A DNA stretch of 64,000 bases, taken from the NCBI GenBank assembly GCA_020638905.1, contig JACKHP010000010.1, forward strand, positions 37,449-101,448, read 5' to 3'. The first letter of the stretch is position 1; each line of letters begins with the position of its first letter. Shown piece by piece: positions 1-64,000 of this stretch. This DNA is from Planctomycetota bacterium. Lineage in GTDB: Bacteria; Planctomycetota; B15-G4. The notes under the pieces were generated by a model. It made no database searches. It saw only the letters and a list, made by a program, of their open reading frames with translations, and was not told the origin of the DNA. The position numbers and the translations under genes were made by a program.

Positions 1-566
1 CGATCCTGGCCGGTGACGAGCGCACCGGCGTGTGCGTCATCGACGTGGTCGAGCGCATGGACGCCGGCGCGATCCTCGGACGGGTCGAGACCGACGTCGA
101 TCGTAAGACCGCCGGAGAGCTGCTCGACGAGCTCGCGCTGGCCGGCGCGAACCTCCTCGTGCGCCTGATCGACCGCATGGCGGCCGACGAGATCGAGCGC
201 ATCCCGCAAGACGAGTCCCGCGTCACGCGGGCCCCGAAGCTCACCGCCGACGACGGACGCATCCGCTGGGAGCACGACGCGGTCGATGTCGACCGCCGCG
301 TGCGCGCGGTCACGCCGCGTCCCGGGGCGTTCGCGCTCGTCGAGGACGTGACGCGCCTGCGCATCCTGGCCGGCGAGCCGGCGGCGTGCCCGAAGGGCTC
401 CCTGCCGGGCGAGATCGTCGAGGCCTCCGAGCAGGGCGTCTTCGTCGCCTGCGGACGCGGTGCGTATCGCATCACGCGCCTGCAGCGCGAGGGCGGACGC
501 CCGCTCGACGCGGCCGAGTACCTGCGCGGCCACGCCCTGCCCGCGGGCGCGCGGCTCGGCCCGTGA
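1..566 (+). CDS. fmt: methionyl-tRNA formyltransferase, C-terminal part (5' end outside window)
   Basis: Frame continuous from base 1; translation ...ILAGDERTGVCVIDVVERMDAGAILGR...RITRLQREGGRPL matches Fmt C-terminal domain; stop TGA 564-566 overlaps next gene start. Confidence 0.85.
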   Translation, partial: ILAGDERTGVCVIDVVERMDAGAILGRVETDVDRKTAGELLDELALAGANLLVRLIDRMAADEIERIPQDESRVTRAPKLTADDGRIRWEHDAVDVDRRVRAVTPRPGAFALVEDVTRLRILAGEPAACPKGSLPGEIVEASEQGVFVACGRGAYRITRLQREGGRPLDAAEYLRGHALPAGARLGP

Positions 567-1864
567 GAGAGCGCGCACTCGCGGTCCTGGTCTCCGTCGA
601 CGGCGGCGCGTTCGCGTCGGAGCGCCTGCTGCCGAGCGATCCGCCGTTCGTGCGCGAGCTCGTGCTGGGCGTGCTGCGCCGGCGGCTCACGCTCGACGCG
701 ATCTACGCGGCGTTCGGGCGACGTCCGCTCGAGGACCTCGACGTCGACGTGCGCTCGGCCATCCGCGCCGGCCTGTACCAGCTGCACTTCATGGACGGCA
801 TCCCGCCCCACGCCGCCGTGGCCGAGACGGTCGGCACGCTGCGCCTCGCCAGCCGGCGCGCCTACGTGAACGCGGTGCTGCGCGCGATCCAGCGCGAGTC
901 GCGACGCGTGCCGCCGGCCGCCGACCGGGGCGGCGCGCACCCGAGCAAGCGCCTCGAGCGCGAGGGACGCAGCGTGAGCTTCTTCTCGCGGCGCGTGTTC
1001 CCCGATCCCGCCGAAGACCGCGTGGGCTGGCTCTCGGTGTTGCACAGCCATCCGCGCCTGCTCGTCGAGCGCTGGCTCGCGCAGGTCGGCGAGGACGAGG
1101 CCGTGCGGCGCATGCAGGCGGGCAACGCCACGCCGCCGCTCGTGCTGCGGCCGTGCGCGCCGCGCGTCGACGCGCTCGAGCTCGCACGCCGGCTCGACGC
1201 CGAAGGCGTGAGCGTGCGCCTGGTCGAGCGCGAGAGCGGACGTCACGCCGTCTCGGCTCCGCCGGGCGCGCGCAAGCTGTTCTCGACGCGCGCCTTCCGC
1301 GAAGGCCTGTTCAGCGTGCAGGACGCCGCCCAGATGGACGCCGTCGAACTGCTCGCGCCCGATCCCGACGCCGTGGTCTGGGACGTCTGCGCCGCGCCGG
1401 GCGGCAAGACCACCCAGATCGCCGAGCAGCTCGCGTCGGGCCGGGGTCGCATCGTCGCCACCGACCTCGTCCCCGACAGGCTGCGCAAGGTCGAGGAGAA
1501 CCTCGCGCGCCTCGGCCTCGCCGAGCGCGTGGTCACCGCCGCCCACGACGCGCTCTCCGACGCGCCGCCGCCGCACATGCCCAGCGGCGGCTTCGACGCG
1601 GTGCTGCTCGACGCGCCGTGCAGCAACACGGCCGTGCTCGCGCGACGTCCCGAGGCGCGCTGGCGGCTGACCGCGGCGACGTTCGACGAGATGGGCGCGC
1701 TCCAGGCGCGCATGCTGCGCTCGGTGCGACGCTGGGTGCGCCCCGGGGGACGGCTCGTGTACTCGGTCTGCACCTACGAGCCCGAGGAAGGCGCGGCCCA
1801 CGCGCTCGCTCCCACGCGCTCGCCCTTCGCCTGGCTCGACGCGCCGCAGGAGCGCGCGCCGTGA
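563..1864 (+). CDS. rsmB: 16S rRNA (cytosine967-C5)-methyltransferase RsmB/Sun
   Basis: GTG 563 overlapping fmt stop; NusB-like N-terminus (RALAVLVSVDGGAFASERLL), SAM motif DVCAAPGGKT, catalytic DAPCS and PxxGRLVYSVCT motifs; classic fmt-rsmB synteny. Confidence 0.85.
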   Translation: MRERALAVLVSVDGGAFASERLLPSDPPFVRELVLGVLRRRLTLDAIYAAFGRRPLEDLDVDVRSAIRAGLYQLHFMDGIPPHAAVAETVGTLRLASRRAYVNAVLRAIQRESRRVPPAADRGGAHPSKRLEREGRSVSFFSRRVFPDPAEDRVGWLSVLHSHPRLLVERWLAQVGEDEAVRRMQAGNATPPLVLRPCAPRVDALELARRLDAEGVSVRLVERESGRHAVSAPPGARKLFSTRAFREGLFSVQDAAQMDAVELLAPDPDAVVWDVCAAPGGKTTQIAEQLASGRGRIVATDLVPDRLRKVEENLARLGLAERVVTAAHDALSDAPPPHMPSGGFDAVLLDAPCSNTAVLARRPEARWRLTAATFDEMGALQARMLRSVRRWVRPGGRLVYSVCTYEPEEGAAHALAPTRSPFAWLDAPQERAP

Positions 1865-5452: not shown

Positions 5453-6712
5453 TCAGCCGGCCGAGGCGGACGCGCCCTCGCCGCTCTTCGCGAGCCGGTG
5501 CAGCTCGTCGTCCTCGAGCAGGCGGTCGCTGTCCTTGGCGGCCGCGAAGAGCCTGTCGACCAGCGCCGGACGCGCGTCGTAGCCGTGCGTCTCGAGCCAG
5601 TAGACGACGTTGCTCTTGCCCGACATCGGCCCCACGCGGATGACCTGCGCCAGTCCGACCATGTCGGCCGGCACGCCCGAGTAGACGCGGTTCGCGAGCC
5701 ATTCCTCGCCCTTCTGGTGGGCCTTGATGACCGCTGCGGCGTGCACGCCGGTGCCGGTCTCGAACGCGTCGCGTCCGAACGCGGGGTAGCTCACGGGGAT
5801 CGGGATGCCCGTCGCCTGGCTCGTGAGCTGGACGTACTCGCCCAGCCGGGCCAGGTCGTTGTCGATCCAGCCTTCGAGCCGCAGGTTGATCAGCAGCTGG
5901 TCCATCGGGACGTTGCCCGCGCGCTCGCCGATGCCCAGGGCCGTGCCGTGCACGCGGTGCGCCCCGGCCTGCAGCGCGGCGATCGCGTTCGGCACTCCGA
6001 GCCCGCGGTCCATGTGGCCGTGCCAGTCGATCTTCACGTCGTCGCGGCCGCTCTTCGCGACGAGCTCCTGGGCCCACTTGACGAGGTTCACCGTGCCCTG
6101 CGGGACGGCGTGCCCGACGGTGTCGCACAGGCACAGCCTGCGGGTCGCCGGCGACTCGAGCGCCGCACCGTAGAGTGCCTCGAGCGTCTCGGGATGGGCG
6201 CGCGTCGTGTCCTCGGTCACGAACATCACGGCCAGTCCCTCCTGCTCGGCGAAGCGCAGCGCGTCGGTCGAGTGGCGCAGCATCGTCGCCAGGTCCCAGT
6301 CTTCGGTGTAGGCGCGGATCTGGCTGCTGCCGATGAACGTCGAGACCTCGATGGGCACGCCCGTCTTCTGCATGATCTCGGCCACCGGCCGGATGTCGGC
6401 CGCCACCGTGCGCGCGGCGCAGTTGGGCTCGATGCGCAGCTTGCTGTCGCGGATCTCGGTCACGAGCCGCGTGACCATCTCGACCACGTGCGGGCCGGCG
6501 CCCGGGAGGCCCACGTTCGCGTAGGTGATGCCCAGCGCGTCCATGAGGTGCAGCAGGCGCAGACGCTCGTCGAAGACCGGCGCCTTGACCGACGGGCACT
6601 GGAGTCCGTCGCGCAGCGTCTCGTCGTCGAACTCGATGCGGTTCGGCGGCGGCGACAGGGCGGGGGCCTTGTTCCAGTCGTAGATCAGGTCCTGCGGCGC
6701 GGGCTCGGACAT
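5453..6712 (-). CDS. HMGL-like family synthase (2-isopropylmalate/homocitrate/citramalate synthase-like, short form)
   Basis: Start at Met 250 of track ORF (MSEPAPQDLIYDW); motifs DETLRDGLQ and WHGHMDRGLGVPNAIAALQAGA match DRE-TIM metallolyase LeuA/NifV family; lacks LeuA C-terminal regulatory domain. Confidence 0.8.
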   Translation of the reverse strand: MSEPAPQDLIYDWNKAPALSPPPNRIEFDDETLRDGLQCPSVKAPVFDERLRLLHLMDALGITYANVGLPGAGPHVVEMVTRLVTEIRDSKLRIEPNCAARTVAADIRPVAEIMQKTGVPIEVSTFIGSSQIRAYTEDWDLATMLRHSTDALRFAEQEGLAVMFVTEDTTRAHPETLEALYGAALESPATRRLCLCDTVGHAVPQGTVNLVKWAQELVAKSGRDDVKIDWHGHMDRGLGVPNAIAALQAGAHRVHGTALGIGERAGNVPMDQLLINLRLEGWIDNDLARLGEYVQLTSQATGIPIPVSYPAFGRDAFETGTGVHAAAVIKAHQKGEEWLANRVYSGVPADMVGLAQVIRVGPMSGKSNVVYWLETHGYDARPALVDRLFAAAKDSDRLLEDDELHRLAKSGEGASASAG

Positions 6713-6804
6713 GGCGTGCTCCCGGGATGGCCGGGCTCCGGGGCCCGGTCGACCGCGCATGTTAGCAGGACCGTTGCGGCCGCGCTCGGCGCCGCGCGGT
6801 CGGC

Positions 6805-7854
6805 TCAGCCGCCCGTCTCGCCGCCGTCCATCTCGAGGAAGAACGTGTCGGATCCGTCGAGCTGCTCGAGGAAGGCGTGGAAGTCGAGCCGATCGTCGGC
6901 GCCGATGGGTGCCACCGCGCCGGTGAGCTGTTCGATGACGGCGTTCGGCAGCGACGCGTCGGCGGTGAGGTCTTTTCCTGCGTAGCTGCCCTCGAGACGC
7001 AGGAGGCCCTTGCGCGCCAGCGGACGCAGCAGCATGCGACGCGCGATGAGCTCGGCCTCGCTCTCGCTCACGAGCTTGACGAGATCGACGGCGTCGACCG
7101 AGCCGACACCTTCGACCAGCTCTTGGAAGAGCACTGTGACGAGGATCACGAGCGCGTCGAGGTCGAGATCGTGCTCGCCGCGCAGCACCAGGATCGGGAA
7201 GCGCTCGGGACGCTCGGTGTGTGCCAACCGGTCGAGCACCCTGGCCGCCTCGACGCGCGCGCGGTGCAGCAGCGACGCGGTGGTGTCGAGCACCTCGATG
7301 CCGGTGCCCGTCCACGGGTCGAGATGGAAGACGCGCGCGGCGCGACGCCGGTAGTGCAGCGAGAGCCGGCGCAGGTCGGAGAGCACCTCGGCGTTCGTGC
7401 GATACGGACCGGTGAGCGCGCCCGGTGTGGCGCGCGGCGGCTCGCCGAAGGCCTCGCACGCCAGGCGGAACGCGTGTTCGCCGAGCCGGTAGCTCACGCC
7501 GTGGGCCTCGGCCGGATGTCCTGGCACGACCTCGGGAACCAGGAAACCGCGGCTCACCAGGGCCCCGTCGCCGGTGAGCAGGCCCAGCGCAGCGAGCCGC
7601 TCGGCCGGGCCGTCGCAGGCCGCCGCCAGCTCGGACCCGAGCAGCGCGCGCTGGCCGTCGAGCCGCGCGACGAGCGACGCGAGCACCAGCAGCACCTCGA
7701 CGTCGGACAGATGATGTCGGGCGAAGGCTCCCAGCAGCGTGCCCGAACCGGCGTCACGCGGACGCCGCGCGACACGCTCGAGGCGGTCGGCGGTCCGCCG
7801 CTCGACGGCGTCGAGCAGCTCGCGCAGGGGGGCCCGGTCTCCGGTGGGGTCCAT
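6805..7854 (-). CDS. hypothetical protein
   Basis: 349 aa ORF with strong GC3 bias and AGGAG-like SD 7 nt upstream of ATG; 92 nt upstream of HMGL-like gene on same strand; no recognised domain. Confidence 0.55.
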   Translation of the reverse strand: MDPTGDRAPLRELLDAVERRTADRLERVARRPRDAGSGTLLGAFARHHLSDVEVLLVLASLVARLDGQRALLGSELAAACDGPAERLAALGLLTGDGALVSRGFLVPEVVPGHPAEAHGVSYRLGEHAFRLACEAFGEPPRATPGALTGPYRTNAEVLSDLRRLSLHYRRRAARVFHLDPWTGTGIEVLDTTASLLHRARVEAARVLDRLAHTERPERFPILVLRGEHDLDLDALVILVTVLFQELVEGVGSVDAVDLVKLVSESEAELIARRMLLRPLARKGLLRLEGSYAGKDLTADASLPNAVIEQLTGAVAPIGADDRLDFHAFLEQLDGSDTFFLEMDGGETGG

Positions 7855-7994: not shown

Positions 7995-9365
7995 ATGGAC
8001 CATCCCGACATCGCCAGGATCATCGAGGGTGTCGAGGGCGCCCTGGGCGTTCCGCGCAAGATCGCGGGAGAGGTGCGCGCGGCCGACATCGCCCAGGCGC
8101 TGGGCGAGCTCGACGAGTCGCACCGCCTGCTGGTCTTCTCGCTGCTGGGCGACCCGAAGGCTGCCGACGTCCTGGCGGCGGCCGACGAGCGCGTGCAGGA
8201 GTCGCTGCTCGAGGCCCTGCCGGCCGAGCGCCTGACCGCGCTCCTGTCGCAGATGGACCCGGACGACGCGGCCGACGTGCTGCAGAGCGCGCCCGAGGAG
8301 GACCGTCCGCGCATCGTCGCCGGGCTCGACGAGGAGACCCGCCGCGAGGTGAGCCTGCTCGACGCCTACGATCCCGAGTCGGCCGGCGGCATCATGACCA
8401 CCGACGTCCCCACGTGTCGCGACGGCGACACCCTGGGACGGGTCATCGAGCAGCTCGGCGACGTCGAGCAGCCCGAGGCGCTCACCGCGATCTACGTCGT
8501 CGACGCCGCGGGCACCCTGCTCGGCCTCGTCGACCTGCGTGCGCTGCTCGTCTCCGACCGCGACGCGCTCGTGCGCGACGTGATGGACACGGACGTCATC
8601 TCGGCCCACGTCGACGACGACCAGGAGGAGGTCGCCCGCCTGGTCGACCGCTACGACCTCGCGTCGGTGCCGGTGGTCGACGCCGCCCGGCGCCTCAAGG
8701 GCGTGATCACCGTCGACGACGTGATCGACGTGCTCGGCGAGGAGGCCAGCGAGGACATGCTGCGCCTGGCCGGCACGGGCGCCGTGCACCCCACGGGTCA
8801 ACCGCTGGTCGAACGCCTGCTGGCACGCGCCCCCTGGCTCTCGGTCACGCTCGTGGGCTCGTTCAGCGCGGGCCTCGTGCTCGAGTTCATCGAGCAGCGC
8901 TGGTTCCCGCACGCGCTCGAGGTGCAGTCGAGCTTCAAGGCGCTGCTGTACTTCATCCCGCTCATCGGCGGCATGGCGGGCAACGTGGGCAGCCAGTCGT
9001 CGACGATCATGGTGCGCGGCTTCGCCACCGGCGAGGTCGACCCCAAGCGCCCGATGCGCGTGCTCAAGGGAGAGCTGCTGCTGGGTCTCGTGATCGGCGT
9101 GCTGGCCGGGCTGATCGTCGGCGTCGCCGCCGCGCTGGTGCATCCCGAGCGCCCGTGGCTGGGGCTCGTGGTGGGGACGGCGCTGCCCGCGGCCATCGGC
9201 GTGGCCGCGCTGGCGGGCACGCTCGTCCCGTTCGCGTGCGCGGCCGTGGGCATCGATCCGGCCTACGCCAGCGGACCCTTCCTGCAGACGCTCAACGACC
9301 TGTCCGCCTACGTGATCTACTTCACCGTCGCCATCGGGCTCATGGATGGCCTCCAGCTCCACTGA
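7995..9365 (+). CDS. mgtE: magnesium transporter MgtE
   Basis: MgtE N-domain, tandem CBS region and C-terminal 5-TM domain (GGMAGNVGSQSSTIMVRG...). Confidence 0.9.
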   Translation: MDHPDIARIIEGVEGALGVPRKIAGEVRAADIAQALGELDESHRLLVFSLLGDPKAADVLAAADERVQESLLEALPAERLTALLSQMDPDDAADVLQSAPEEDRPRIVAGLDEETRREVSLLDAYDPESAGGIMTTDVPTCRDGDTLGRVIEQLGDVEQPEALTAIYVVDAAGTLLGLVDLRALLVSDRDALVRDVMDTDVISAHVDDDQEEVARLVDRYDLASVPVVDAARRLKGVITVDDVIDVLGEEASEDMLRLAGTGAVHPTGQPLVERLLARAPWLSVTLVGSFSAGLVLEFIEQRWFPHALEVQSSFKALLYFIPLIGGMAGNVGSQSSTIMVRGFATGEVDPKRPMRVLKGELLLGLVIGVLAGLIVGVAAALVHPERPWLGLVVGTALPAAIGVAALAGTLVPFACAAVGIDPAYASGPFLQTLNDLSAYVIYFTVAIGLMDGLQLH

Positions 9366-10542
9366 GAACGCCCGAGGCGTCGACCCGCTTCCGACGCCGC
9401 GCCCGCGCGGGCGACGTCGCCGGCTCGCGCTGTCCGCGGCGCTGGTGCTCGCGCCGGCGATCCTGTTCCGCGTCGCGCTGCTGCCGTTCGAGGTCACGTC
9501 GCCGTCGATGGAGCCGGCGCTGGCCACCGGCGACCGCTACCTCGCGCTGCGCGACGCGTTCGATCCGCGTGAGCGCGAGCGCTTCGACGTGGGCTTCTTC
9601 GACGGGGAGGTCGACGCGTCCCTCGACGACGACGTCGAGTCGCTCGTGAAGCGCATCGCGTCGTGGGGAGACGAATGGGTCGAGATCGAGGGCGGCGACC
9701 TGTGGGCCGGACCCGACCCGGCGAACCTCGCGCCGGTGCGCAAGTCCGACGCCCTGGCCGAGGCGCTGCTCGTGCCCGTGCACGAGTGCGCCGGCCTGGC
9801 CCCGCCCTGGACGTTCCCCGACGCACCCGCCGACGGACGCGCGACGCGGCTCGCGGCGGGTTCGGTCCCGGTCATGGCCGACTTCGGCGAGGCCGTGCGC
9901 GACGGTGTCTGGCGCGACGGACGGCTCGTGCGCGAGGGCAGCGAGCTCGTGGCCGACACCGCGCTGCGCGTGGTCGTCGGCGAGGGTGACGGCTCGCTCG
10001 TGCTCGTGCTGCGCGAGGGCGCCGACACGTTCCGCGCGCTGCTCGCGCCGAGCGAACGGGGCGGCGCCGTCCTGGCGCACAACCTGGCCGGCGCCGAGGT
10101 CGCGGCGGCGCCCGCCTTCTCCGGACTGCACCCGGGGTCGACGGTGCTGTTCAGCAACGTCGACGACCGCGTGCGCCTGGCCGTCGACGGCGAGACGGTC
10201 TTCGCCTACGACCACGCGTCCGGTTCGCCGGGCGACCCGGGCTTCCACAACGCGCCGCGGCTGGGCGTGGTCGACGGCGCGCTCGAGCTGCGCGCGGTGT
10301 CCGTCCTGCGCGACGTGCACTACACCGCGGCCGGCGATCACGGGACGCAGCCGGGCGGCGTCCTGACCCCCTGCCGGGTGGGTCCGGGACAGGTCTTCCT
10401 GCTGGGCGACGACAGCGCCCGTTCGCGCGACAGCCGGCACTTCGGCCCCGTCCCGGTCGAGCGCCTGCTGGGACGGCCGGTGTTCTGCTACGGCCCGGCC
10501 GCGCGCCTCGGCCGCCGCGCCGCCGACGGAACGGCACCGTGA
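9346..10542 (+). CDS. signal peptidase I-like (S26 family) protein
   Basis: N-terminal TM, catalytic Ser motif SPSMEPAL (cf. SGSMxPTL) and box E-like GDDSARSRDSRHFGPV; overlaps mgtE end by 20 nt. Confidence 0.7.
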   Translation: MASSSTENARGVDPLPTPRPRGRRRRLALSAALVLAPAILFRVALLPFEVTSPSMEPALATGDRYLALRDAFDPRERERFDVGFFDGEVDASLDDDVESLVKRIASWGDEWVEIEGGDLWAGPDPANLAPVRKSDALAEALLVPVHECAGLAPPWTFPDAPADGRATRLAAGSVPVMADFGEAVRDGVWRDGRLVREGSELVADTALRVVVGEGDGSLVLVLREGADTFRALLAPSERGGAVLAHNLAGAEVAAAPAFSGLHPGSTVLFSNVDDRVRLAVDGETVFAYDHASGSPGDPGFHNAPRLGVVDGALELRAVSVLRDVHYTAAGDHGTQPGGVLTPCRVGPGQVFLLGDDSARSRDSRHFGPVPVERLLGRPVFCYGPAARLGRRAADGTAP

Positions 10543-10612
10543 AAGCGCGCAACCGTCTCGCCGGGGCGCGGTTCCGGACGCCCGAGCGACCCGACGACGG
10601 AGCGCCATCTCC

Positions 10613-11206
10613 TTGAGCGAGCCGCCCGACGGACGCGAACTCATGCTGGCCGTGGCCGCCGACCGGCCCGGAGCCTTCGAGGACCTCGTCCGCGCCTACG
10701 AGGCGCGGGTCAAGGCCGCCTGCAAGCGCTCCGTGCGCGACGTGGCCTCGGTGGACGACCTCGCCCAGGAGGTCTTCCTGCGACTGTTCCGGTCGAGGCA
10801 CCGGTACCAGCCCACGGCGCGCTTCGAGACCTTCCTCTACCGCATCATCTTCAACCTCTGCGTGAACCACACCCAGTTCAGCAACCGCCGCAGGACCTGG
10901 TCGCTCGACGCCCCAGTGGGCGGCGCCGACGACGAGGGCGCTCCGTCGTTGCCCGCCGACGAGCGCCAGGGCGCGCCGCTCGAGCTGCTCGAGGAGAGCG
11001 AGCGCGCGCTCCTCGTGCGCGAGGCGGTCGAGGAGCTGCCCGACAACCAGCGCCGCGCCCTGCTGCTGTCCCGCTTCGAGGGCCTCGGCTACGAGGAGAT
11101 CGGAGCGGTCATGGACCTCTCGCTCCAGGCGGTCAAGTCGCTGCTCTGGCGGGCGCGTGAGAACCTGCGGCGACGGCTGCAGCCGATCCTCGGAGACAAC
11201 CCATGA
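10613..11206 (+). CDS. ECF (sigma-70 family) RNA polymerase sigma factor
   Basis: TTG start; region 2 (DLAQEVFLRLFRSRHRYQPTARFETFLYRIIFNLCVNH) and region 4 (LPDNQRRALLLSRFEGLGYEEIGAVMDLSLQAVKSLLWRARENLR). Confidence 0.85.
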   Translation: MSEPPDGRELMLAVAADRPGAFEDLVRAYEARVKAACKRSVRDVASVDDLAQEVFLRLFRSRHRYQPTARFETFLYRIIFNLCVNHTQFSNRRRTWSLDAPVGGADDEGAPSLPADERQGAPLELLEESERALLVREAVEELPDNQRRALLLSRFEGLGYEEIGAVMDLSLQAVKSLLWRARENLRRRLQPILGDNP

Positions 11207-11682
11207 ACGACATCCGGCGGCAGCTCCTGCACGAGTGGATGGACGGCACGTTGCCCGACGAGCGGCGCGCCGAGGTCGAGGCGTGGCTCGGCGAGCCCGA
11301 GGTGCGGCGCTACGTCGCCGAGCACCGCGCCGTCTGGACGGCCCTGGGCGCGGCCTTCGTCGACGAGCCGATCGAGGTCTCGTCCGACTTCCGCGACGAG
11401 ACCGTGCGCCGGGCGCGCGCCGAGGAGCGGCGCGACGCGTTCAGCGCGCGCCGCTTCGCCGTGGCGCTGGCCGCCGGCCTGCTCATCGCGCTGGGACTGT
11501 TCTCGTGGTGGCGTCCGGCGCCGGCGCCGTCCGAGGCGCTCGACCCGGGTGACCACGAGGTGGTGCGCCACCTGCACGTGCTGCGCGACCTCGAGCTCGT
11601 CGAGCGCCGCAAGGCCGAGCTCGACCTGCGCGGCGAGTACGACGTGCTGATGGCCTTCGCCGGCGAGGTCGAAGAAGGATGA
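11203..11682 (+). CDS. putative anti-sigma factor (single TM)
   Basis: ATGA overlap with sigma gene; N-terminal sigma-binding-like helix, one TM (FAVALAAGLLIALGLFSWW). Confidence 0.6.
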   Translation: MNDIRRQLLHEWMDGTLPDERRAEVEAWLGEPEVRRYVAEHRAVWTALGAAFVDEPIEVSSDFRDETVRRARAEERRDAFSARRFAVALAAGLLIALGLFSWWRPAPAPSEALDPGDHEVVRHLHVLRDLELVERRKAELDLRGEYDVLMAFAGEVEEG

Positions 11683-54725: not shown

Positions 54726-56762
<2,037 letters not shown>

Positions 56763-57480: not shown

Positions 57481-58326
57481 CTATCCCTTGTCGGGCTCGT
57501 CGAGGAAGGCCAGCGTCGAGCCGACGATGCCGAACGGCAGCAGCAGCGGGACGAAGCTCACCACGACGCCGAGCGCGATCACGAGCAGGATGTGCCGGCG
57601 GGCCCAGGCGGTTCGGCGTCCCGCGGGGTAGAGCTTGCGCGACAGGATCACGTCGACCTGGCCGAGGCCGGCGTAGTAGAAGCCGGCGGCGACGAACAGC
57701 GGCGCGCCCACGGCGGTGAAGCTCAAGGCGAAGAGCAGCGCCATCACGAGCGCCTGGCGCAGCACGAGCGAGAGCGCGGCGCGCAGCGAGCGCAGCAGGT
57801 CGCCGACGAAGGCCGACCAGGGACGTCCCGGGTCTTTGCGGCCGAAGTGCACCGACTCGACGGCCTCGCTGAGCATGTCGTAGAAGGGCGCGTTCACGAT
57901 GCTCGAGAGCAGCAGCGTGAGGAAGAAGCCGGCCAGCACCGCGACCGTCCACAGCACCACGCCGAGCAGCCAGCCGGTGGCCTCGCGCAGCCAGTCGATC
58001 CACGCGGGCCACGACTGGGACAGGTCGGGCATCCAGTCGGACGCGTAGGTCGCGAGGCCCCAGACGATGAGCGCGAAGAGCAGCGCGTTGAGCAGCAGCG
58101 GGAGGACGATCCAGCTCCACAGGCGCGGGTTGCGGGAGACGTAAGCCATGCCGCGCAGGGGCGAGGCGAGGCCGCGCGAGACGGCCGAGCCGAGGGCGCT
58201 GCCGGCGGTGGCGGGACGCGGCGCGGTGTTGCCGCAGCGTCCGCACTCGGCGGGCGGCGGCAGGGTCGCGGCGCCGCAGCGCCAGCACCGCTGCTTGCCC
58301 GGGGCGTCCGGGGACGTGTCGCTCAT
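57481..58326 (-). CDS. EI24/CysZ-like (DUF540) membrane protein with N-terminal zinc-ribbon
   Basis: Start at internal Met (MSDTSPD); CWRCG...CGRCG zinc-ribbon-like motif then multiple TM helices typical of EI24/CysZ-like proteins. Confidence 0.55.
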   Translation of the reverse strand: MSDTSPDAPGKQRCWRCGAATLPPPAECGRCGNTAPRPATAGSALGSAVSRGLASPLRGMAYVSRNPRLWSWIVLPLLLNALLFALIVWGLATYASDWMPDLSQSWPAWIDWLREATGWLLGVVLWTVAVLAGFFLTLLLSSIVNAPFYDMLSEAVESVHFGRKDPGRPWSAFVGDLLRSLRAALSLVLRQALVMALLFALSFTAVGAPLFVAAGFYYAGLGQVDVILSRKLYPAGRRTAWARRHILLVIALGVVVSFVPLLLPFGIVGSTLAFLDEPDKG

Positions 58327-58636
58327 CGTCCGGCCTCGCTCGTGCTCGATGGGGACGGGATCGGAGCCGCGTGCGCGCCGAGGAGCGCGCCCCCGTCCTG
58401 GACGCGGCGCGACGGGCGGGCCGCGCACCGCGGGGCGCCGATCCTAGCAACCCTGGACGATCGTCCGGGCACGGCGTACGTGCGGCGCCGGAGCCGAGCC
58501 GGCCGGCCCGCGGAGCCCCTGGGCGCGTGGCCCGCCGCGGCCCGGGGATGCTACCCTGGCCCGGATCGTCGGGCCGTCCGAAAGGGCGCGCCGCCGACAC
58601 CCTTCCGACCTGACTCACGCCACGCGAGTTCGAACC

Positions 58637-59809
58637 ATGGGCGCCTTCCGCGGTCTCGACTACTTCCACCTCGACGACCTCCTGACCGAAGAAGAGGTCA
58701 TGATCCGCGACATGACGCGCGACTTCGTGTCGGACGCGGTCATGCCGGTCATCGAGGACGCGTACGAGAAGGCGTACTTCCCGATGGACCTCGTGCCGAA
58801 GATCGCCGAGCTCGGCATGCTCGGCGCGAACCTGCCGACCGAGTACGGTTGCGCGGGACTGGGTCCGGTCGCGTACGGACTCATCTGCCAGGAGCTCGAG
58901 CGCGGCGACTCGGGACTGCGCTCGTTCGTGTCGGTGCAGGGCAGCCTCGTGATGTGGCCGATCTTCGCGTACGGCTCCGAAGAGCAGAAGCAGAAGTGGC
59001 TGCCGCGCATGGCGAAGGGCGAGGCCATCGGCTGCTTCGGTCTCACAGAGCCCGATCACGGCAGCGATCCCGGCGGCATGGAGACGCGCGCCACGAAGGA
59101 CGGCGACGGCTGGATCCTGAACGGCGCCAAGATGTGGATCACGAACGGCACGATCGCCGACGTGGCCGTGGTCTGGGCGCGCACCGACGAGGGCATCCAG
59201 GGCTTCCTGGTCGAGAAGGGCACCGAGGGCTTCAGCGCCCCCGAGCAGAAGCGCAAGTTCAGCCTGCGCGCGAGCGTGACGAGCGAGCTGGTGCTCGACC
59301 ACGTGCGCGTGCCCGACTCGGCGCGGCTGCCCGGCGTGAAGGGGCTGAAAGGCCCGCTGGGCTGCCTGACCCAGGCGCGCTACGGCATCGCGTGGGGCGG
59401 CGTCGGCGCGGCGATGGCCTGCTACGACGAGGTGCTGCAGTACACGAAGGAGCGCGAGCAGTTCGGGCGTCCGCTCGCGGGCTTCCAGCTCATCCAGGCC
59501 AACCTGGCCGAGATGGTGACCGAGATCACGAAGGCGCAGCTCGTCGTCTGGCGTCTCGGCAAGCTGAAAGAGGCCGGCAAGGCGCGTCCGCAGCACGTGA
59601 GCCTGGCGAAGCGCAACAACATCCACATCGCGCTGAAGATCGCGCGCATGTGCCGCGACATGCTCGGCGCGAACGGCATCACCGCCGAGTACCAGGCCAT
59701 GCGCCACATGTGCAACCTCGAGTCGGTCTACACGTACGAGGGCACGCACAACATCCACACGCTCGTGATCGGCCAGGACGTGACGGGGATCTCGGCCTTC
59801 GGCGGGTAG
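58637..59809 (+). CDS. gcdH: glutaryl-CoA dehydrogenase-like acyl-CoA dehydrogenase
   Basis: ACAD N, middle (CFGLTEPDHGSDPGGMETRA) and C-terminal domains; YTYEGTHNIHTLVIGQDVTGISAF C-terminus is characteristic of GCDH family. Confidence 0.88.
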   Translation: MGAFRGLDYFHLDDLLTEEEVMIRDMTRDFVSDAVMPVIEDAYEKAYFPMDLVPKIAELGMLGANLPTEYGCAGLGPVAYGLICQELERGDSGLRSFVSVQGSLVMWPIFAYGSEEQKQKWLPRMAKGEAIGCFGLTEPDHGSDPGGMETRATKDGDGWILNGAKMWITNGTIADVAVVWARTDEGIQGFLVEKGTEGFSAPEQKRKFSLRASVTSELVLDHVRVPDSARLPGVKGLKGPLGCLTQARYGIAWGGVGAAMACYDEVLQYTKEREQFGRPLAGFQLIQANLAEMVTEITKAQLVVWRLGKLKEAGKARPQHVSLAKRNNIHIALKIARMCRDMLGANGITAEYQAMRHMCNLESVYTYEGTHNIHTLVIGQDVTGISAFGG

Positions 59810-59904: not shown

Positions 59905-60291
59905 ATGAATCGTGTCACCGGCATCGGCGGCGTGTTCTTCAAGGCGAAGGACCCGAAGGCCCTGGCCGCGTGGTATCGCGACCATCTGGGCATGAACGTC
60001 GAAGACTGGGGCGGGGTCGCGTTCCGCTGGGTCACCGAGTCGAACCCGAGTGGAACGGGGACGACGGTCTGGAGCCCGTTCAAGGCGGACACGACGTACT
60101 TCGCGCCCAGCCAGGCCAGCTTCATGGTGAACTACCGGGTCGAGGACCTCGACGCCGTGCTGGCCGCCCTGCGCGCCGAAGGCTGCCAGGTCGACGACAA
60201 GGTCGAAGAGTCGGAGTTCGGCAGGTTCGGCTGGGTGATCGACCCGGAAGGCAACAAGGTCGAGCTCTGGCAACCGCCCGCGGGGCAGTGA
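59905..60291 (+). CDS. VOC (glyoxalase/bleomycin resistance/dioxygenase) family protein
   Basis: 128 aa; GIGGVFFKAKDPKALAAWYRDHLGM ... FGRFGWVIDPEGNKVELWQP typical VOC beta-alpha-beta-beta-beta modules. Confidence 0.7.
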   Translation: MNRVTGIGGVFFKAKDPKALAAWYRDHLGMNVEDWGGVAFRWVTESNPSGTGTTVWSPFKADTTYFAPSQASFMVNYRVEDLDAVLAALRAEGCQVDDKVEESEFGRFGWVIDPEGNKVELWQPPAGQ

Positions 60292-60317: not shown

Positions 60318-61679
60318 TCACGCGGTGTCGCGCTCGACGAGCTCGGTGTCGCAGTCGAGCTCGAGCGCGAAGCGTCCGCGTCCCGTGGAGACCATGCGCA
60401 CGTCGGGGCAACGCTCGGCGAGCCGGTTGCGCAGCAGGATGAGCCGGCTCTCGAGGTTGTCCTTGAGTGCGGGCAGGCCGAGGGCGGGGTCGAGGCGCAG
60501 TTCACGGTTGGTGAACTCGGTGCGGCCCTCGCGCGCGTGCTGGCCGAGCAGCTTCCACAGGATGCGGCCGGGGACGTTGCGCACGAGGTACTCACCGTCG
60601 ACGAAGACGCAGTCGTCGTTGCGGTAGAAGACGAAGCGCCGGACGGGTCGGCTGCTCGCGACGACGAGCGGCGTCTCCTCCGCGCCTCCCAGGCGATCGA
60701 TGCCCTGGGCGATCTGGTTCGCGACGATCTGCAGGTAGGCCTCGTCCCACTCGTCGAAGCAGAACGGGTCGGGACTCTCGACCGCGAGCACGCCGACGAG
60801 GCGGCACCCGACGAGGAGCGGCAGGCCGAGCTGGGCCTGCGCGTCGGGCAGTCCCGGCAGCGGCAGCTCCGGCGGGAGGTCTTGCGAGCCGTCGCGCCGC
60901 GCCAACGACTCGCGGACCGCGCGACCGTAGCGCAGCTCGGCGCCGACGCCCGCGACGCGCAGCATGCGACGCCTGGCGGCGACCGTCCCGATCAGGCCTT
61001 CACCGACCTTGACCGCGAGGCCGGCGGTGCGGCCCTCGTAGCCGCGGCTGGCGAGGGTGACGAGACGGCTCTCGTCGCGTGGATCGACCGCGAGCACCAT
61101 CGCGTGGGAGAAGCCGAACAGCTCGTCGAGCGCGGTGAGCGAACCCGACAGCATCTCGTCGAGGTCGCCCGCACGCGTGATGCGATCGCTCACGACCTGC
61201 AGGCCGCGCAGCTCGGTGAGCGGACCGCCTCCGACCGTCGCGGAGGACAGCGCGTCGAGCGCGAGGTCGGGCGGCGTCAGGTAGCCCGCGACCTCCTCGA
61301 GCGAGACGACCTCGTAGACGTCGGCCGAGATGAGCTTGAACACCCCCGTCATGCCCGTGTGCGATGCGATCACGTCGATGCGCGCCGACATCGTCTCGAA
61401 CAGCGGGCCCGTCGTCTCGGAGCGCTCGAAGCGCGCGCACAGGTGATACGCCCGGAAGTCGATCGGGTCGTAGAGGACGATCGTGACCACCGGGTTCTGC
61501 GCGACGTTGCGCACCGTCTTGTTGAAGAACTGGCGCGAGAGCGCGACGTGGCCTGCGTCGACGTAGTAGACGTGCGAGAGATACGTGATGTTCGGCTCGC
61601 CGTCCTTGCTGACGGTGGCGATCACCGACGGGGCGATGCCCTGGAAGCAGGACTGCAGGTCCGCGAGGCGCGCGGTCAT
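60318..61679 (-). CDS. PNPOx-like (FMN-binding split barrel) N-terminal domain fused to GAF domain and C-terminal uncharacterised domain
   Basis: N-terminal IATVSKDGEPNITYLSHVYYVD... resembles pyridoxamine 5'-phosphate oxidase-like fold; central GAF-like segment (LDELFGFSHAMVLAVDPRDESRLVTLASRGYEG...LIGTVAARRRMLRV). Confidence 0.55.
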   Translation of the reverse strand: MTARLADLQSCFQGIAPSVIATVSKDGEPNITYLSHVYYVDAGHVALSRQFFNKTVRNVAQNPVVTIVLYDPIDFRAYHLCARFERSETTGPLFETMSARIDVIASHTGMTGVFKLISADVYEVVSLEEVAGYLTPPDLALDALSSATVGGGPLTELRGLQVVSDRITRAGDLDEMLSGSLTALDELFGFSHAMVLAVDPRDESRLVTLASRGYEGRTAGLAVKVGEGLIGTVAARRRMLRVAGVGAELRYGRAVRESLARRDGSQDLPPELPLPGLPDAQAQLGLPLLVGCRLVGVLAVESPDPFCFDEWDEAYLQIVANQIAQGIDRLGGAEETPLVVASSRPVRRFVFYRNDDCVFVDGEYLVRNVPGRILWKLLGQHAREGRTEFTNRELRLDPALGLPALKDNLESRLILLRNRLAERCPDVRMVSTGRGRFALELDCDTELVERDTA

Positions 61680-62158
61680 GCGTCGACCCCCTGGCCCAGC
61701 GCTTCACCCGCGCCCGGACCGGGAGTCTGGACCCAGATCGTCTCGATCTCGACGCGCACCGCGTGGCACGGCCAGCTCGAGATGCGGTAGCTGAGGCGCG
61801 GAGGCATCCCCACGAAGGCCAGGTTCTGCGCGAGCTCGCCGCGATAGCGGTCGACGACGGCGCGGTCCTCGTCGCGGGCCGCCGCGACGCTTCGCGCGCG
61901 TCCCTTGAGCTGGATCGTGCGGTTGTCGGCGATGCGCGAGAAGCAGATCGCGATGCGCCCGTTGTCTTCGAGGTTCGCGAGGGTGCGTGTTCCGGTCGCG
62001 GCGGGGACGAACACGACGACGTGCCCGCGGTCGGGTTCGACGCGCGCCCCGACGCCGCGCACCGCCTCGGGAACGAGCGATGCGTCGCGGGTCCCGATCT
62101 GCACCGAGACCCCCGACTGCACGAAGTCGACGAGTTCCGCCGAGAGGCTCCTGGTCAT
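61676..62158 (-). CDS. pyridoxamine 5'-phosphate oxidase-like FMN-binding protein
   Basis: 160 aa; ELVDFVQSGVSVQIGTRDASLVPEAVRGVGARVE...IQLKGRAR split-barrel pattern; ATGA overlap with downstream PNPOx-GAF gene. Confidence 0.6.
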   Translation of the reverse strand: MTRSLSAELVDFVQSGVSVQIGTRDASLVPEAVRGVGARVEPDRGHVVVFVPAATGTRTLANLEDNGRIAICFSRIADNRTIQLKGRARSVAAARDEDRAVVDRYRGELAQNLAFVGMPPRLSYRISSWPCHAVRVEIETIWVQTPGPGAGEALGQGVDA

Positions 62159-62283
62159 CGCGGCCAGAGTCTAGCAGCCCGCCGACGGTCTCCTCGACGT
62201 CGACGGAGCCCTCGGGACGCGGGCCCGCGCGAGCGCCGGGGCCCCGCGCGGCGCTCGCACCGCGCGGGCGCCGCGGGTCCCGC

Positions 62284-62853
62284 TCAGCCGCGCGGCGGCA
62301 GTGGCTCCGGCACGCGGTTCGAGACGGCCGGCTGCGACTTCAGGTACGCGAAGATCGCCCGCAGATCGTCGTCGGTGAGCCTGCCGATCCCCGGCCAGGG
62401 CATCGGCGGGAGGATCGGGCGACCCATCCCGAGGTGCTTGCCGGTCCGCAGCGAGGCGAGGAAGGTGTCCTCGCTCCAGCTCCCGATGCCGGTCTCGACG
62501 TCCGGCGTCAGGTTCGAGGTGAAGCTCACACCCCAAGGACCGGCCCAGGCGGTGTTCGTCGCCGCGGCCGAGACGAGCCACGGACCCTCGGGCAGCTCCG
62601 GCGCGGGCGGCATCACGAGCTCGGCCGGATGACCCGACAGCCCGCGCGACGCGTCCGGCTCGGGACCGTTCGGGCCGACGTGCCAGGGCGTGTGACAGTC
62701 GGCGCAGCCCAACGCCACGGTGAGGTAGCGGCCGCGCTCGACCGACGCCGGTGCGAAGGTCGCGCCCGCACTGGCCTTCTCGCACGCCGGCAGGGACGAC
62801 GCGGCGACGAGCACCGCGGCGAGGGACAGGCTGGTGATCAGGGACTTCGACAT
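62284..62853 (-). CDS. c-type cytochrome lipoprotein (single CxxCH)
   Basis: Lipobox SLPAC; heme motif CADCH; cytochrome c-like ...IFAYLKSQ motif. Confidence 0.65.
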   Translation of the reverse strand: MSKSLITSLSLAAVLVAASSLPACEKASAGATFAPASVERGRYLTVALGCADCHTPWHVGPNGPEPDASRGLSGHPAELVMPPAPELPEGPWLVSAAATNTAWAGPWGVSFTSNLTPDVETGIGSWSEDTFLASLRTGKHLGMGRPILPPMPWPGIGRLTDDDLRAIFAYLKSQPAVSNRVPEPLPPRG

Positions 62854-62869
62854 GGGACTTCCTCCGGAA

Positions 62870-63928
62870 TCAGGGGGTCGGCTCGAGGTCTTCTCGAATC
62901 CAGGTTTCGATGAGGTGCAGGGCGTCGACGTCGACGAGGTGCGTGCCCAGCGGCGGCATCTGCCGCAGCGGGTCGCGCGTCGCCATGCGCTCGACGAGGG
63001 TGCTGAGTTCGGGTGCGCCGGGCTCGATGCGCGCCTCGCACGACGGCGCGCCGGGCGGCCGGAAGCGGCTGGGACGGCCGACGGTCGTCACGAGCGCACG
63101 CGGCGGGTGATCGCCGTCCCGGTCGCGCAGTTCGGCGCCGAGCGTGAGCCCGAGTCCGGCCAGCGGACCGTCGTCGCGATGGCACGAGCCGCAGTGCGTG
63201 TCGAGGTAGCCGAGCGCCGCGCGCTCGCGCGGCGTCCGTGCGGGGATGCGTGGCGGCCGCGCGAGGAGGTCGGCGGGGAGTCCGCGCACGAGACCACGGG
63301 CGACGAACGCCGCGAGGTCCTGCCCGGCCGGCACGCCGGCGTTCGCGTGCGGGGCGAGCGGGTCGCGCTCGGCCGAGAGCTGCAGCGCGTCGAAGCCGAG
63401 CACGCCGTCGCCGCGCGAGTGGCACGTCGCGCAGTCGGCGCGCCCCGGGACGTCGTAGGGCACGCCCGGAGCGACCTCGGCGAGGTGTGCGACGCCGCCG
63501 GCCGGAGCCAGGACGGCGTCGCCCCCGTCGTCGCTCCAGACGTACGACGCGCGCAGCCACGAGCCGTCCGCGCGCTTCTCCATGTACCGCGTCTCGAGGC
63601 GCCGCCCGAGCGCGAACTCCTTCCAGAGCCTGGTGCCGGCGGGGAAGACCCACGCCTCGGGATCGGTCGCGTCGATCGCGCTCCCGGCGGGCACGTGGAT
63701 CCAGCGCCGCTTCGTCGCACCGTCGGTCCAGAGCGGGTACTGCGGGTCGTACGGCCAGACGTCCGGCGCGACGTCGCGCAGCGTGGCGTCGGCGTACAGG
63801 CCGGTATCGGCGAGGTGCGCAGGCAGCTCGTCCGGCGCGGGCGCGGGCGGCGCCGCGTCAGGCGCGCACGACGCGAGCGCGAGTGCTGCGAGCGCGAGAC
63901 CCCGGAGGGACGGTCGACACGCCTTCAT
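62870..63928 (-). CDS. di-heme c-type cytochrome-like lipoprotein, hypothetical
   Basis: Lipobox LALASC; two CxxCH motifs (CATCHS, CGSCHR); 17 nt upstream of the monoheme cytochrome gene on same strand. Confidence 0.55.
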   Translation of the reverse strand: MKACRPSLRGLALAALALASCAPDAAPPAPAPDELPAHLADTGLYADATLRDVAPDVWPYDPQYPLWTDGATKRRWIHVPAGSAIDATDPEAWVFPAGTRLWKEFALGRRLETRYMEKRADGSWLRASYVWSDDGGDAVLAPAGGVAHLAEVAPGVPYDVPGRADCATCHSRGDGVLGFDALQLSAERDPLAPHANAGVPAGQDLAAFVARGLVRGLPADLLARPPRIPARTPRERAALGYLDTHCGSCHRDDGPLAGLGLTLGAELRDRDGDHPPRALVTTVGRPSRFRPPGAPSCEARIEPGAPELSTLVERMATRDPLRQMPPLGTHLVDVDALHLIETWIREDLEPTP

Positions 63929-64000
63929 CGCACGGCGTCCGCGAGCGATGCGCTCCAGCGCCGCTCGCCCAGCTCGACGCGCGCAGCGGCGGTCACCGCC
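63925..64000 (-). CDS. 3' end of an upstream minus-strand gene (partial, runs off window)
   Basis: ATGA overlap at 63925-63928 implies an upstream reading frame whose stop overlaps the start of 62870..63928; too short to classify. Confidence 0.25.
   Translation of the reverse strand, partial: AVTAAARVELGERRWSASLADAVR

Follow-up and report, generated by a model that had tools for sequence, protein, structure and literature searches.

A predicted two-protein split-barrel regulator with a winged-helix output domain and its putative di-iron/cytochrome c regulon in Planctomycetota-labelled and other bacterial genomes

We analysed a 64,000-nucleotide stretch of DNA from a Planctomycetota bacterium (contig JACKHP010000010.1, positions 37,449 to 101,448; hereafter the window), and in particular a cluster of minus-strand genes at 60318-63928. 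The cluster encodes a diheme and a monoheme c-type cytochrome, a small protein with a PNPOx-like split-barrel domain, and a fusion protein in which a second PNPOx-like domain is followed by a GAF domain and a C-terminal domain. An earlier reading of the same letters (the sequence-only reading) had taken these four proteins for one periplasm-to-cytoplasm unit that handles or senses heme. We consider it probable that the locus is not a single machine but a regulator next to its regulon, with a two-protein split-barrel sensor that acts through a GAF domain and a winged helix. More tentatively, the pair could represent a new class of gas- or redox-sensing transcription factors, in which a heterodimeric split barrel drives a winged-helix output and controls a di-iron/cytochrome c regulon in at least five phylum-level groups.

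Both PNPOx-like proteins named in the sequence-only reading scored above the cut-off (28.1 bits) of Pfam PNPOx_N (PF01243), with 30.8 bits for the small protein and 40.2 bits for residues 12-98 of the fusion protein. The model of the fusion N-domain shows a split beta-barrel fold. When this model was searched with Foldseek, a check that had been proposed earlier, the closest solved folds were the heme-associated HupZ (7kq2/7kpz; TM 0.72-0.74, 18% identity) and the FMN-binding protein 3in6; for these two proteins the target-normalised TM scores range from 0.65 to 0.74, with E-values of about 1e-7. In alignments of homologues, the motifs GEPN, QFFNKT and IASHxGM are invariant in the fusion N-domain, including His107 and Met110 within IASHxGM, and the small PNPOx protein ends in the invariant tail QTPGPxAG. 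Judged by eye, the invariant stretch QFFNKTxRN looks like an FMN-phosphate site and the invariant IASHxGM could ligate heme. The GAF call was likewise borne out, since residues 172-328 match Pfam GAF_2 (51.1 bits), GAF (46.7 bits) and GAF_3 (42 bits) above cut-off, and the best Foldseek match of this domain is the GAF domain of PtsP (3ci6; TM 0.86, target-normalised). Its model contains a low-confidence insertion at residues 250-273.

The part that follows the GAF domain had been described as about 100 residues of unknown nature. It is indeed without a Pfam match, but its predicted fold is a winged helix. The whole fusion protein was modelled by AlphaFold2 (AF2) with a pLDDT of 79 and its C-terminal part with more than 90, and the last 111 residues alone reached a pLDDT of 94.8 and a pTM of 0.87. 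In the model, three strands are followed by a helix, another strand, a short and then a long helix, and finally a hairpin sheet of three strands. In a Foldseek search of the PDB, SaeR was the top match (4qwq; probability 0.99, TM 0.58/0.65), BaeR (4b09) had a probability of 0.97 and ArlR (6iju) one of 0.75 at rank 9, and the remaining top matches were mostly winged-helix proteins. As modelled, the domain looks like a winged helix for which the OmpR/PhoB type is the closest.

To see where else this domain occurs, 1.84 billion representative proteins were scanned. The domain was found in 991 protein clusters (50% identity) and is mostly C-terminal among those listed. It comes after a GAF domain alone (about 300 aa), after PNPOx and GAF (about 450 aa), after two PNPOx modules and GAF (629-660 aa) or after a PAS domain (335 aa, P0373). 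In addition, it ends a protein of 852 aa with a STAND NTPase and MalT-like TPR repeats (P0360), which was seen on 17 contigs. Because the domain is swapped behind unrelated sensor modules, we regard it as a candidate output domain of one-component regulators, and its distribution suggests a broader output-domain family that matches no Pfam model. One further protein, P0254 (249 aa), carries the domain twice in tandem and has no Pfam match.

Next we compared the locus between genomes. When one genome per species was scanned, 195 were found to encode a relative, and the best 80 of these 195 loci were compared by their tblastn neighbours. Wherever DNA upstream of the fusion gene was available (79 loci), the gene directly before it is the small-PNPOx orthologue, and by eye the two genes overlap as ATGA or GTGA at many of these junctions. 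Moreover, the small PNPOx module is fused in-frame to the N-terminus of a PNPOx-GAF-winged-helix protein in three divergent clusters of 629-660 aa. These fusions were established by cluster membership, as frames are open by chance at 70% GC and the length of an open reading frame (ORF) is uninformative. They are not assembly artefacts, since the 27 members of one cluster come from many independent contigs, with a RefSeq entry (WP_366781386.1, Tibeticola sp.) among them. A BLAST comparison of the small PNPOx protein with the fusion N-domain gave no significant similarity (E 0.16), and the two are therefore distant paralogues at best. Proteins of the PNPOx fold are dimers that hold their cofactor at the interface. 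The obligate pairing and the natural fusion of two different split barrels point to a heterodimeric sensor module, and judged from this gene order we take the small PNPOx protein to be the obligate partner of the fusion protein.

Relatives of the fusion protein number in the thousands, and public annotation calls them only "GAF domain-containing protein" or "adenylate cyclase". By label, the compared loci, and the small-PNPOx/fusion pair within them, belong to Planctomycetota metagenome-assembled genomes (MAGs), Candidatus Eisenbacteria, Acidobacteriota and Myxococcota, the last including cultured Anaeromyxobacter species. The five-gene order of the window, which starts with a hemerythrin-like gene described below, recurs in 15 of the 80 species-level genomes. 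Together with the 79 of 79 small-PNPOx/fusion pairs this shows that the arrangement is not due to chance, and the gene linkage proposed earlier is conserved across phyla. The gene order is thus not unique to this genome, but a promoter-like hexamer does sit between the monoheme and the small-PNPOx genes. Unsupervised clustering of the neighbouring ORFs gave three recurrent partners, a monoheme cytochrome (47 of the 80 loci), a hemerythrin (42) and a diheme cytochrome (27); beyond these, no neighbour recurs in more than 8 loci. The placement of the three genes varies, from upstream on the same strand to divergent, downstream convergent or absent, and the cytochromes are absent from about 40% of the loci. 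The cluster of Anaeromyxobacter dehalogenans, for instance, consists of hemerythrin, small PNPOx and fusion genes without cytochromes; in strain 2CP-C the regulator pair is located at about 3.459-3.461 Mb of CP000251.

By comparing upstream regions between loci we found CTTAGG-type cores that form a 44-bp element of four direct repeats with 11-bp spacing (consensus CTTAGGcAATT CTTAGGAnnnn nnnAGCGACCA TTTAGGAnGCG). Of 57 distances between cores, 41 are 10-12 nt. When both strands of the locus DNA (about 1.2 Mb) were scanned with a position weight matrix (PWM) of the 44 bp, 56 non-overlapping matches reached 18 bits or more. Of these, 50 precede a hemerythrin, diheme or monoheme gene by 22-137 nt and share its orientation. 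This placement holds even for target units downstream of, or convergent with, the regulator, and loci with two separate target units carry two elements. Five matches have no such target downstream. Three of these (L047, L049 and L055) precede a gene of the ODP family (PF19583), an oxygen-binding di-iron protein with a metallo-beta-lactamase fold, located at 6568-7374(-), 6549-7343(-) and 110-973(-) of the respective locus; this protein also matches the di-iron domain of the NorV flavorubredoxin. In some Acidobacteriota, one type of di-iron protein thus appears to be swapped for another under the same element. The element in L062 precedes a gene for a small membrane protein, and the fifth of these matches is in L051.

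In the genome of the window itself the element has 38 bits and lies 52 nt before the hemerythrin ATG. It is found on a second public contig (L086, positions 1865-1908), which corresponds to about 64639-64682 in window coordinates, roughly 640 nt past the window end; the 64 kb of the window contain no PWM match of 10 bits or more. A betaproteobacterial locus with a fused regulator (L208) has a single match of 42 bits in 12.6 kb, directly upstream of a hemerythrin gene. This hemerythrin gene is flanked by a GMC-family oxidoreductase gene at 8997-10604(-) and a second hemerythrin gene at 10752-11312(+), which may be extra lineage-specific members of the regulon. Altogether, element and regulator are found together in five phylum-level groups. 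Several target promoters show, by eye, a -10-like hexamer some 20-25 nt downstream of the element; with this spacing the repeats would cover the -35 region, an arrangement like that of activator-dependent Pho-box promoters.

The short repeat pattern was also tried as a marker of the system in a scan of metagenome contigs, and was rejected. Only 2 of 80 matches were true system loci, and most of the others were minisatellites or high-GC HtrA contigs; the short pattern alone is therefore not specific. In the HtrA group, CTTAGG repeats with 11-bp spacing are found upstream of HtrA-like serine protease genes (L155 2827-2870, L093 322-365 and L106 1612-1655). These contigs have about 66-70% GC, are probably actinobacterial and do not carry this regulator; the repeats probably serve a different OmpR-family response regulator of the MprA or CseB type. 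Near-identical four-unit 11-bp repeats of CTTAGGAA were seen on L132, L133, L150, L164 and about 40 other metagenome contigs with about 41-45% GC. L132 and L164 are without long ORFs, and L164 has an exon-like fragment that resembles a receptor kinase. We take the CTTAGGAA repeats for probable eukaryotic minisatellites whose likeness to the bacterial element is accidental.

The regulator pair seems to be transcribed on its own. In 45 of 75 homologous loci the small-PNPOx start codon is preceded, at a distance of 6-18 nt, by a hexamer of the form TAnnnT (most often TAGAAT); the background frequency is 1.5%. By eye, several loci without such a near hexamer have a similar one further upstream, followed by a GGAG Shine-Dalgarno sequence. 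A consensus promoter scan of the 125-nt spacer found nothing, since there is no -35 in it. Most likely, judged from the hexamer, the pair has its own putative promoter and an mRNA that is leaderless or has a very short leader. As this conserved -10-like hexamer lies within the spacer, the cluster probably consists of two transcription units, regulator and regulon. An RNA-based explanation of the spacer was considered and discarded (fold z-score -0.96, no Rfam match and no terminator-like site in the spacer). The hexamer is flanked by a GC-rich inverted repeat whose arms vary between genomes and yet stay complementary. Perfect stems of at least 6 bp surround it in 22% of the loci, compared to 3.8% at random positions, and they are 7-9 bp long in nine loci. 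The hairpin, with the -10 box in its loop, is clearer in L010, L016, L018, L025, L060, L006 and L032; in the window (62159-62190) it is weak, with a stem of only 4 bp.

The predicted target unit starts beyond the window. The last 76 bases of the window, 63925-64000(-), translate to AVTAAARVELGERRWSASLADAVR*, which matches the C-terminus of the hemerythrin at the same position in the closest related genome (L003), and the stop codon overlaps the diheme ATG as ATGA. The 4.3-kb contig L086, which is 100% identical to the window across an overlap of 1717 nt, carries the whole hemerythrin-like gene (220 aa) and 252 nt upstream of it. The full protein matches Pfam Hemerythrin HHE (PF01814) with 27.4 bits (cut-off 25.3).

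Both following proteins are c-type cytochromes, as the sequence-only reading had stated. They have the heme-binding motifs (CXXCH; CATCH and CGSCH in one, CADCH in the other), a hydrophobic N-terminus with LASC or LPAC, and Pfam matches above cut-off, namely PSCyt1 for the diheme protein (24.8 bits, cut-off 22) and Cytochrom_C for the monoheme protein (25.6 bits, cut-off 21.3). Residues 36-345 of the diheme protein align over almost the full NCBIfam model of the SO2930 family (TIGR03806; E 5.7e-51), but its 173.5 bits are well under the family cut-off of 313.3, and it is therefore a relative and not a member of this family. In their titles and abstracts, the publications on SO2930 and SO2931 appear to assign no function to these proteins. 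The monoheme protein can be aligned (E 7e-22) with individual heme domains from the triheme cytochrome subunits found in membrane-bound dehydrogenases for alcohol, fructose and glucose. It had been called a lipoprotein; the LPAC sequence is present, but it is an atypical lipobox and some homologues have a plain signal peptide. The hemerythrin-like protein is cytoplasmic, and the two cytochromes are exported.

We propose the following model. The regulator unit would be made up of the translationally coupled small PNPOx protein and the PNPOx-GAF-winged-helix protein, expressed from their own -10-like hexamer, and the target unit of the hemerythrin-like di-iron protein, the diheme cytochrome c and the monoheme cytochrome c behind the 44-bp element. 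The two different split-barrel modules would form a heterodimer in the usual manner of PNPOx-fold dimers, with a redox-active cofactor (FMN or heme) bound between them. O2, NO or the cellular redox state would change this cofactor, and the change would be relayed via the GAF domain to the C-terminal winged helix. The winged helices of regulator oligomers would then occupy the 11-bp direct repeats over the -35 region, and the bound regulator would activate transcription of the di-iron and cytochrome genes. In this scheme the domain identities, the predicted fold of the output domain, the constant pairing and natural fusion of the two PNPOx modules, and the conserved element with its strict placement come from the data; DNA binding by the fusion protein, activation as the direction of control, a flavin or heme cofactor, and O2, NO or redox state as the signal are inferred. 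The hemerythrin and ODP/flavodiiron-like families are known for binding or reducing O2 and NO, and Anaeromyxobacter and Thermoanaerobaculia are low-oxygen soil and sediment bacteria. We favour O2, NO or redox as the signal because the target families handle O2 or NO and several hosts belong to low-oxygen lineages.

Several results weigh against the regulator-regulon model. The Foldseek E-values of the C-terminal domain are weak (0.03-0.3), and the domain has no match in the 2025 copy of Pfam even at E<=10, including OmpR/PhoB Trans_reg_C (PF00486). A profile built from 34 sequences of the domain finds no PDB sequence, and hhalign against a three-sequence OmpR-family profile (PhoB, OmpR and one sequence from L066) gave a probability of 0.5%; this non-significant alignment covered the expected recognition helix and wing. 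Because of the weak E-values and the missing sequence link, the domain is likened to the OmpR/PhoB effector domain and not filed as a member. In 16 loci with usable flanks, the fetched DNA contains no hemerythrin, monoheme or diheme gene; an ODP-like gene takes their place in three of these loci, and two give only distant matches of the cytochrome c type. The PWM was seeded from 13 of the loci in which its 56 matches were counted, and those 13 matches are circular. The element is tied to this regulator by co-occurrence alone, and another transcription factor could bind it. In the lineage of the window we saw by eye no repeat unit beside the regulator's own promoter, and autoregulation is therefore not evident there. 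Finally, these data distinguish neither flavin from heme nor between the candidate signals.

The weakness of the fold matches and the missing homology to any DNA-binding family at the sequence level would also fit a C-terminal domain that binds no DNA, with an element that belongs to an unlinked factor and a PNPOx-GAF protein that acts post-transcriptionally or as a partner of the hemerythrin. We consider this highly improbable, as the fold matches are mostly winged-helix proteins with OmpR/PhoB DNA-binding domains on top and the domain sits at the output position of several sensor architectures. In addition, no other conserved regulator gene lies near an element that accompanies this regulator in five phylum-level groups, and direct repeats of 11 bp are what OmpR/PhoB-type domains recognise. 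The single heme unit of the sequence-only reading, in which cytochromes, small PNPOx and fusion protein would handle or degrade heme in the manner of HugZ/HutZ or relay electrons, would turn the C-terminal domain into a protein-interaction module. It is in line with the HupZ-like fold of the fusion N-domain, with a weak match to the HugZ/HutZ model TIGR04110 (E 0.013) and with adjacent genes whose short spacers and order are kept in 15 genomes. That match, however, has 15.2 bits against a cut-off of 225 and lies outside the family. Moreover, the cytochromes are missing from many loci or are convergent or divergent, the predicted winged helix is modular behind unrelated sensor domains, and the direct-repeat element marks the hemerythrin/cytochrome unit as separately controlled and as a likely regulatory target. 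We therefore regard such a unit as very unlikely.

Two further explanations keep the proteins but change what they respond to or do. The same regulator might sense the availability of heme or iron, with a split-barrel pair that binds free heme, so that iron-demanding proteins are expressed only when heme or iron is plentiful. Every identifiable predicted target is an iron or heme protein, and the HupZ-like N-domain with its invariant His107 and Met110 would suit such a role. We nevertheless find this signal unlikely, since the conserved neighbours include no genes for heme uptake, heme synthesis or iron transport, the di-iron target families are known for O2 and NO binding or reduction, and QFFNKTxRN resembles by eye the phosphate-binding stretch of FMN-binding split barrels. 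That the PNPOx pair is mainly an FMN- or F420-dependent reductase, with GAF and winged helix attached for regulation by its substrate or product in the way of bifunctional enzyme-repressors like PutA or BirA, is a still less probable option. Most characterised PNPOx-fold proteins are oxidoreductases and GAF domains commonly bind small metabolites, and there are matches of 26.2 and 20.3 bits to the F420-dependent PPOX class (TIGR03618). These scores are far under the cut-off of 79 and do not support membership, and the host lineages are not known to produce F420. In addition, the clustering of neighbours revealed no recurrent metabolic pathway genes, and the predicted targets encode di-iron proteins and cytochromes instead of enzymes of catabolism.

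The proposed system shares features with several known ones. Like the OmpR/PhoB effector domains of SaeR, BaeR, ArlR and PhoB, the predicted C-terminal domain has an N-terminal beta-sheet, three helices and a C-terminal beta-hairpin wing. By eye, its RGRF wing and LLRKRL helix resemble RGxGY and RLRKKL, and hhalign aligned that stretch. The putative operator, with 11-bp-period direct repeats that overlap the -35 region, is similar to the Pho boxes. In contrast to these proteins, sequence homology was not detectable, a receiver domain and a partner histidine kinase are absent, and the domain is driven by PNPOx and GAF, GAF alone, PAS or STAND-TPR modules. CodY also combines a GAF-type ligand-binding domain and a C-terminal winged-helix DNA-binding domain (the latter predicted here) in one polypeptide, but the fusion protein matched no CodY Pfam families. 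Unlike the proposed pair, CodY works without a split-barrel module or a partner protein; it responds to branched-chain amino acids and GTP and binds a palindromic operator instead of direct repeats.

NifL-NifA, in which a flavoprotein sensor of redox state and O2 is co-translated with a GAF-containing activator, resembles the pair: here too, the gene of a possibly flavin-bearing sensor directly precedes, with translational coupling, that of a putative transcription factor with a GAF domain. A weak match of the fusion protein to a NifA model covers the GAF region only. NifL, however, is a PAS-FAD protein and NifA a sigma-54 AAA+ activator with a Fis-type HTH, whereas the present pair has no AAA+ domain and its two sensor modules are paralogous folds that are sometimes fused. 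HupZ, HugZ and HutZ are related through the N-domain, for which HupZ is the best solved-structure match at 18% identity. They differ in that no DUF2470 or HugZ C-terminal module is present here and no heme-uptake genes lie nearby; moreover, the FMN-binding protein 3in6 matches the N-domain about equally well.

The features of the locus are listed in Table 1. The ORF listing of the window confirmed the four same-strand minus genes, and the G+C content of this region is about 70-78%. The distances are 16 nt between the diheme and monoheme genes and 125 nt between the monoheme and small-PNPOx genes, each one nucleotide less than the 17 and 126 nt given before; the 4-nt ATGA overlap of the small-PNPOx and fusion genes had been reported correctly.

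Table 1. Features of the regulator and target genes in window coordinates.
Feature	Position	Strand	Basis or remark
Hemerythrin-like di-iron protein gene, 3' end (24 codons and stop)	63925..64000	-	window end truncates gene
Diheme c-type cytochrome, probable lipoprotein, 352 aa (CATCH and CGSCH, LASC lipobox)	62870..63928	-	translation, TIGR03806, PSCyt1
Monoheme c-type cytochrome, signal peptide, 189 aa (CADCH, LPAC)	62284..62853	-	Pfam Cytochrom_C
Spacer between monoheme and small-PNPOx genes, 125 nt	62159-62283		
-10-like hexamer TAGACT, putative promoter of the regulator pair	62168..62173	-	9 nt 5' of small-PNPOx ATG
Small PNPOx-like split-barrel protein, 160 aa	61676..62158	-	Pfam PNPOx_N
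Fusion protein (PNPOx-GAF-winged helix), 453 aa	60318-61679	-	ORF listing, Pfam
N-terminal PNPOx-like domain of fusion protein, about aa 1-135	61275..61679	-	Pfam PNPOx_N, Foldseek
GAF domain of fusion protein, about aa 155-333	60681..61217	-	Pfam GAF_2, Foldseek
C-terminal winged-helix domain of fusion protein, aa 343-453, putative DNA-binding output	60321..60653	-	AF2, Foldseek

Further genes were recognised by eye around the cluster. A small gene at about 59908-60291(+), whose product looks like a glyoxalase/VOC-family protein, is convergent with the fusion gene and ends 26 nt from its stop; there is no terminator-like site between the two. An acyl-CoA dehydrogenase-like gene lies at 58637-59809(+), a gene for an EI24/CysZ-like membrane protein at 57481-58428(-) and one for a methionyl-tRNA synthetase-like protein at 54726-56762(-). 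As none of these last three recurs beside the system elsewhere, they are probably unrelated to it.

Bacteria sense their surroundings mainly through one-component regulators, and the general kind of protein described here, a one-component transcription factor, is already known. To our knowledge, split-barrel (PNPOx-fold) modules are not among the recognised sensor inputs, and a literature search for this domain combination found no description of the system. The split-barrel heterodimer as input, the family of output domains without a Pfam match, and the putative operator with its regulon appear to be undescribed. The family is widespread, and it occurs in soil and sediment lineages that have received little study (Anaeromyxobacter, Polyangia, Acidobacteriota, Eisenbacteria and Planctomycetota-labelled MAGs). 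It offers a testable package of a regulator pair, a 44-bp predicted operator and, as a small regulon, the genes for di-iron proteins and periplasmic cytochromes, and Anaeromyxobacter dehalogenans, which is sequenced and in culture, carries the pair. If the model is true, it would give a physiological context to hemerythrin-like proteins and SO2930-like cytochromes, and it could explain how facultative and microaerophilic anaerobes switch on protection against O2 or NO, with a regulon that lets soil and sediment anaerobes cope with these gases.

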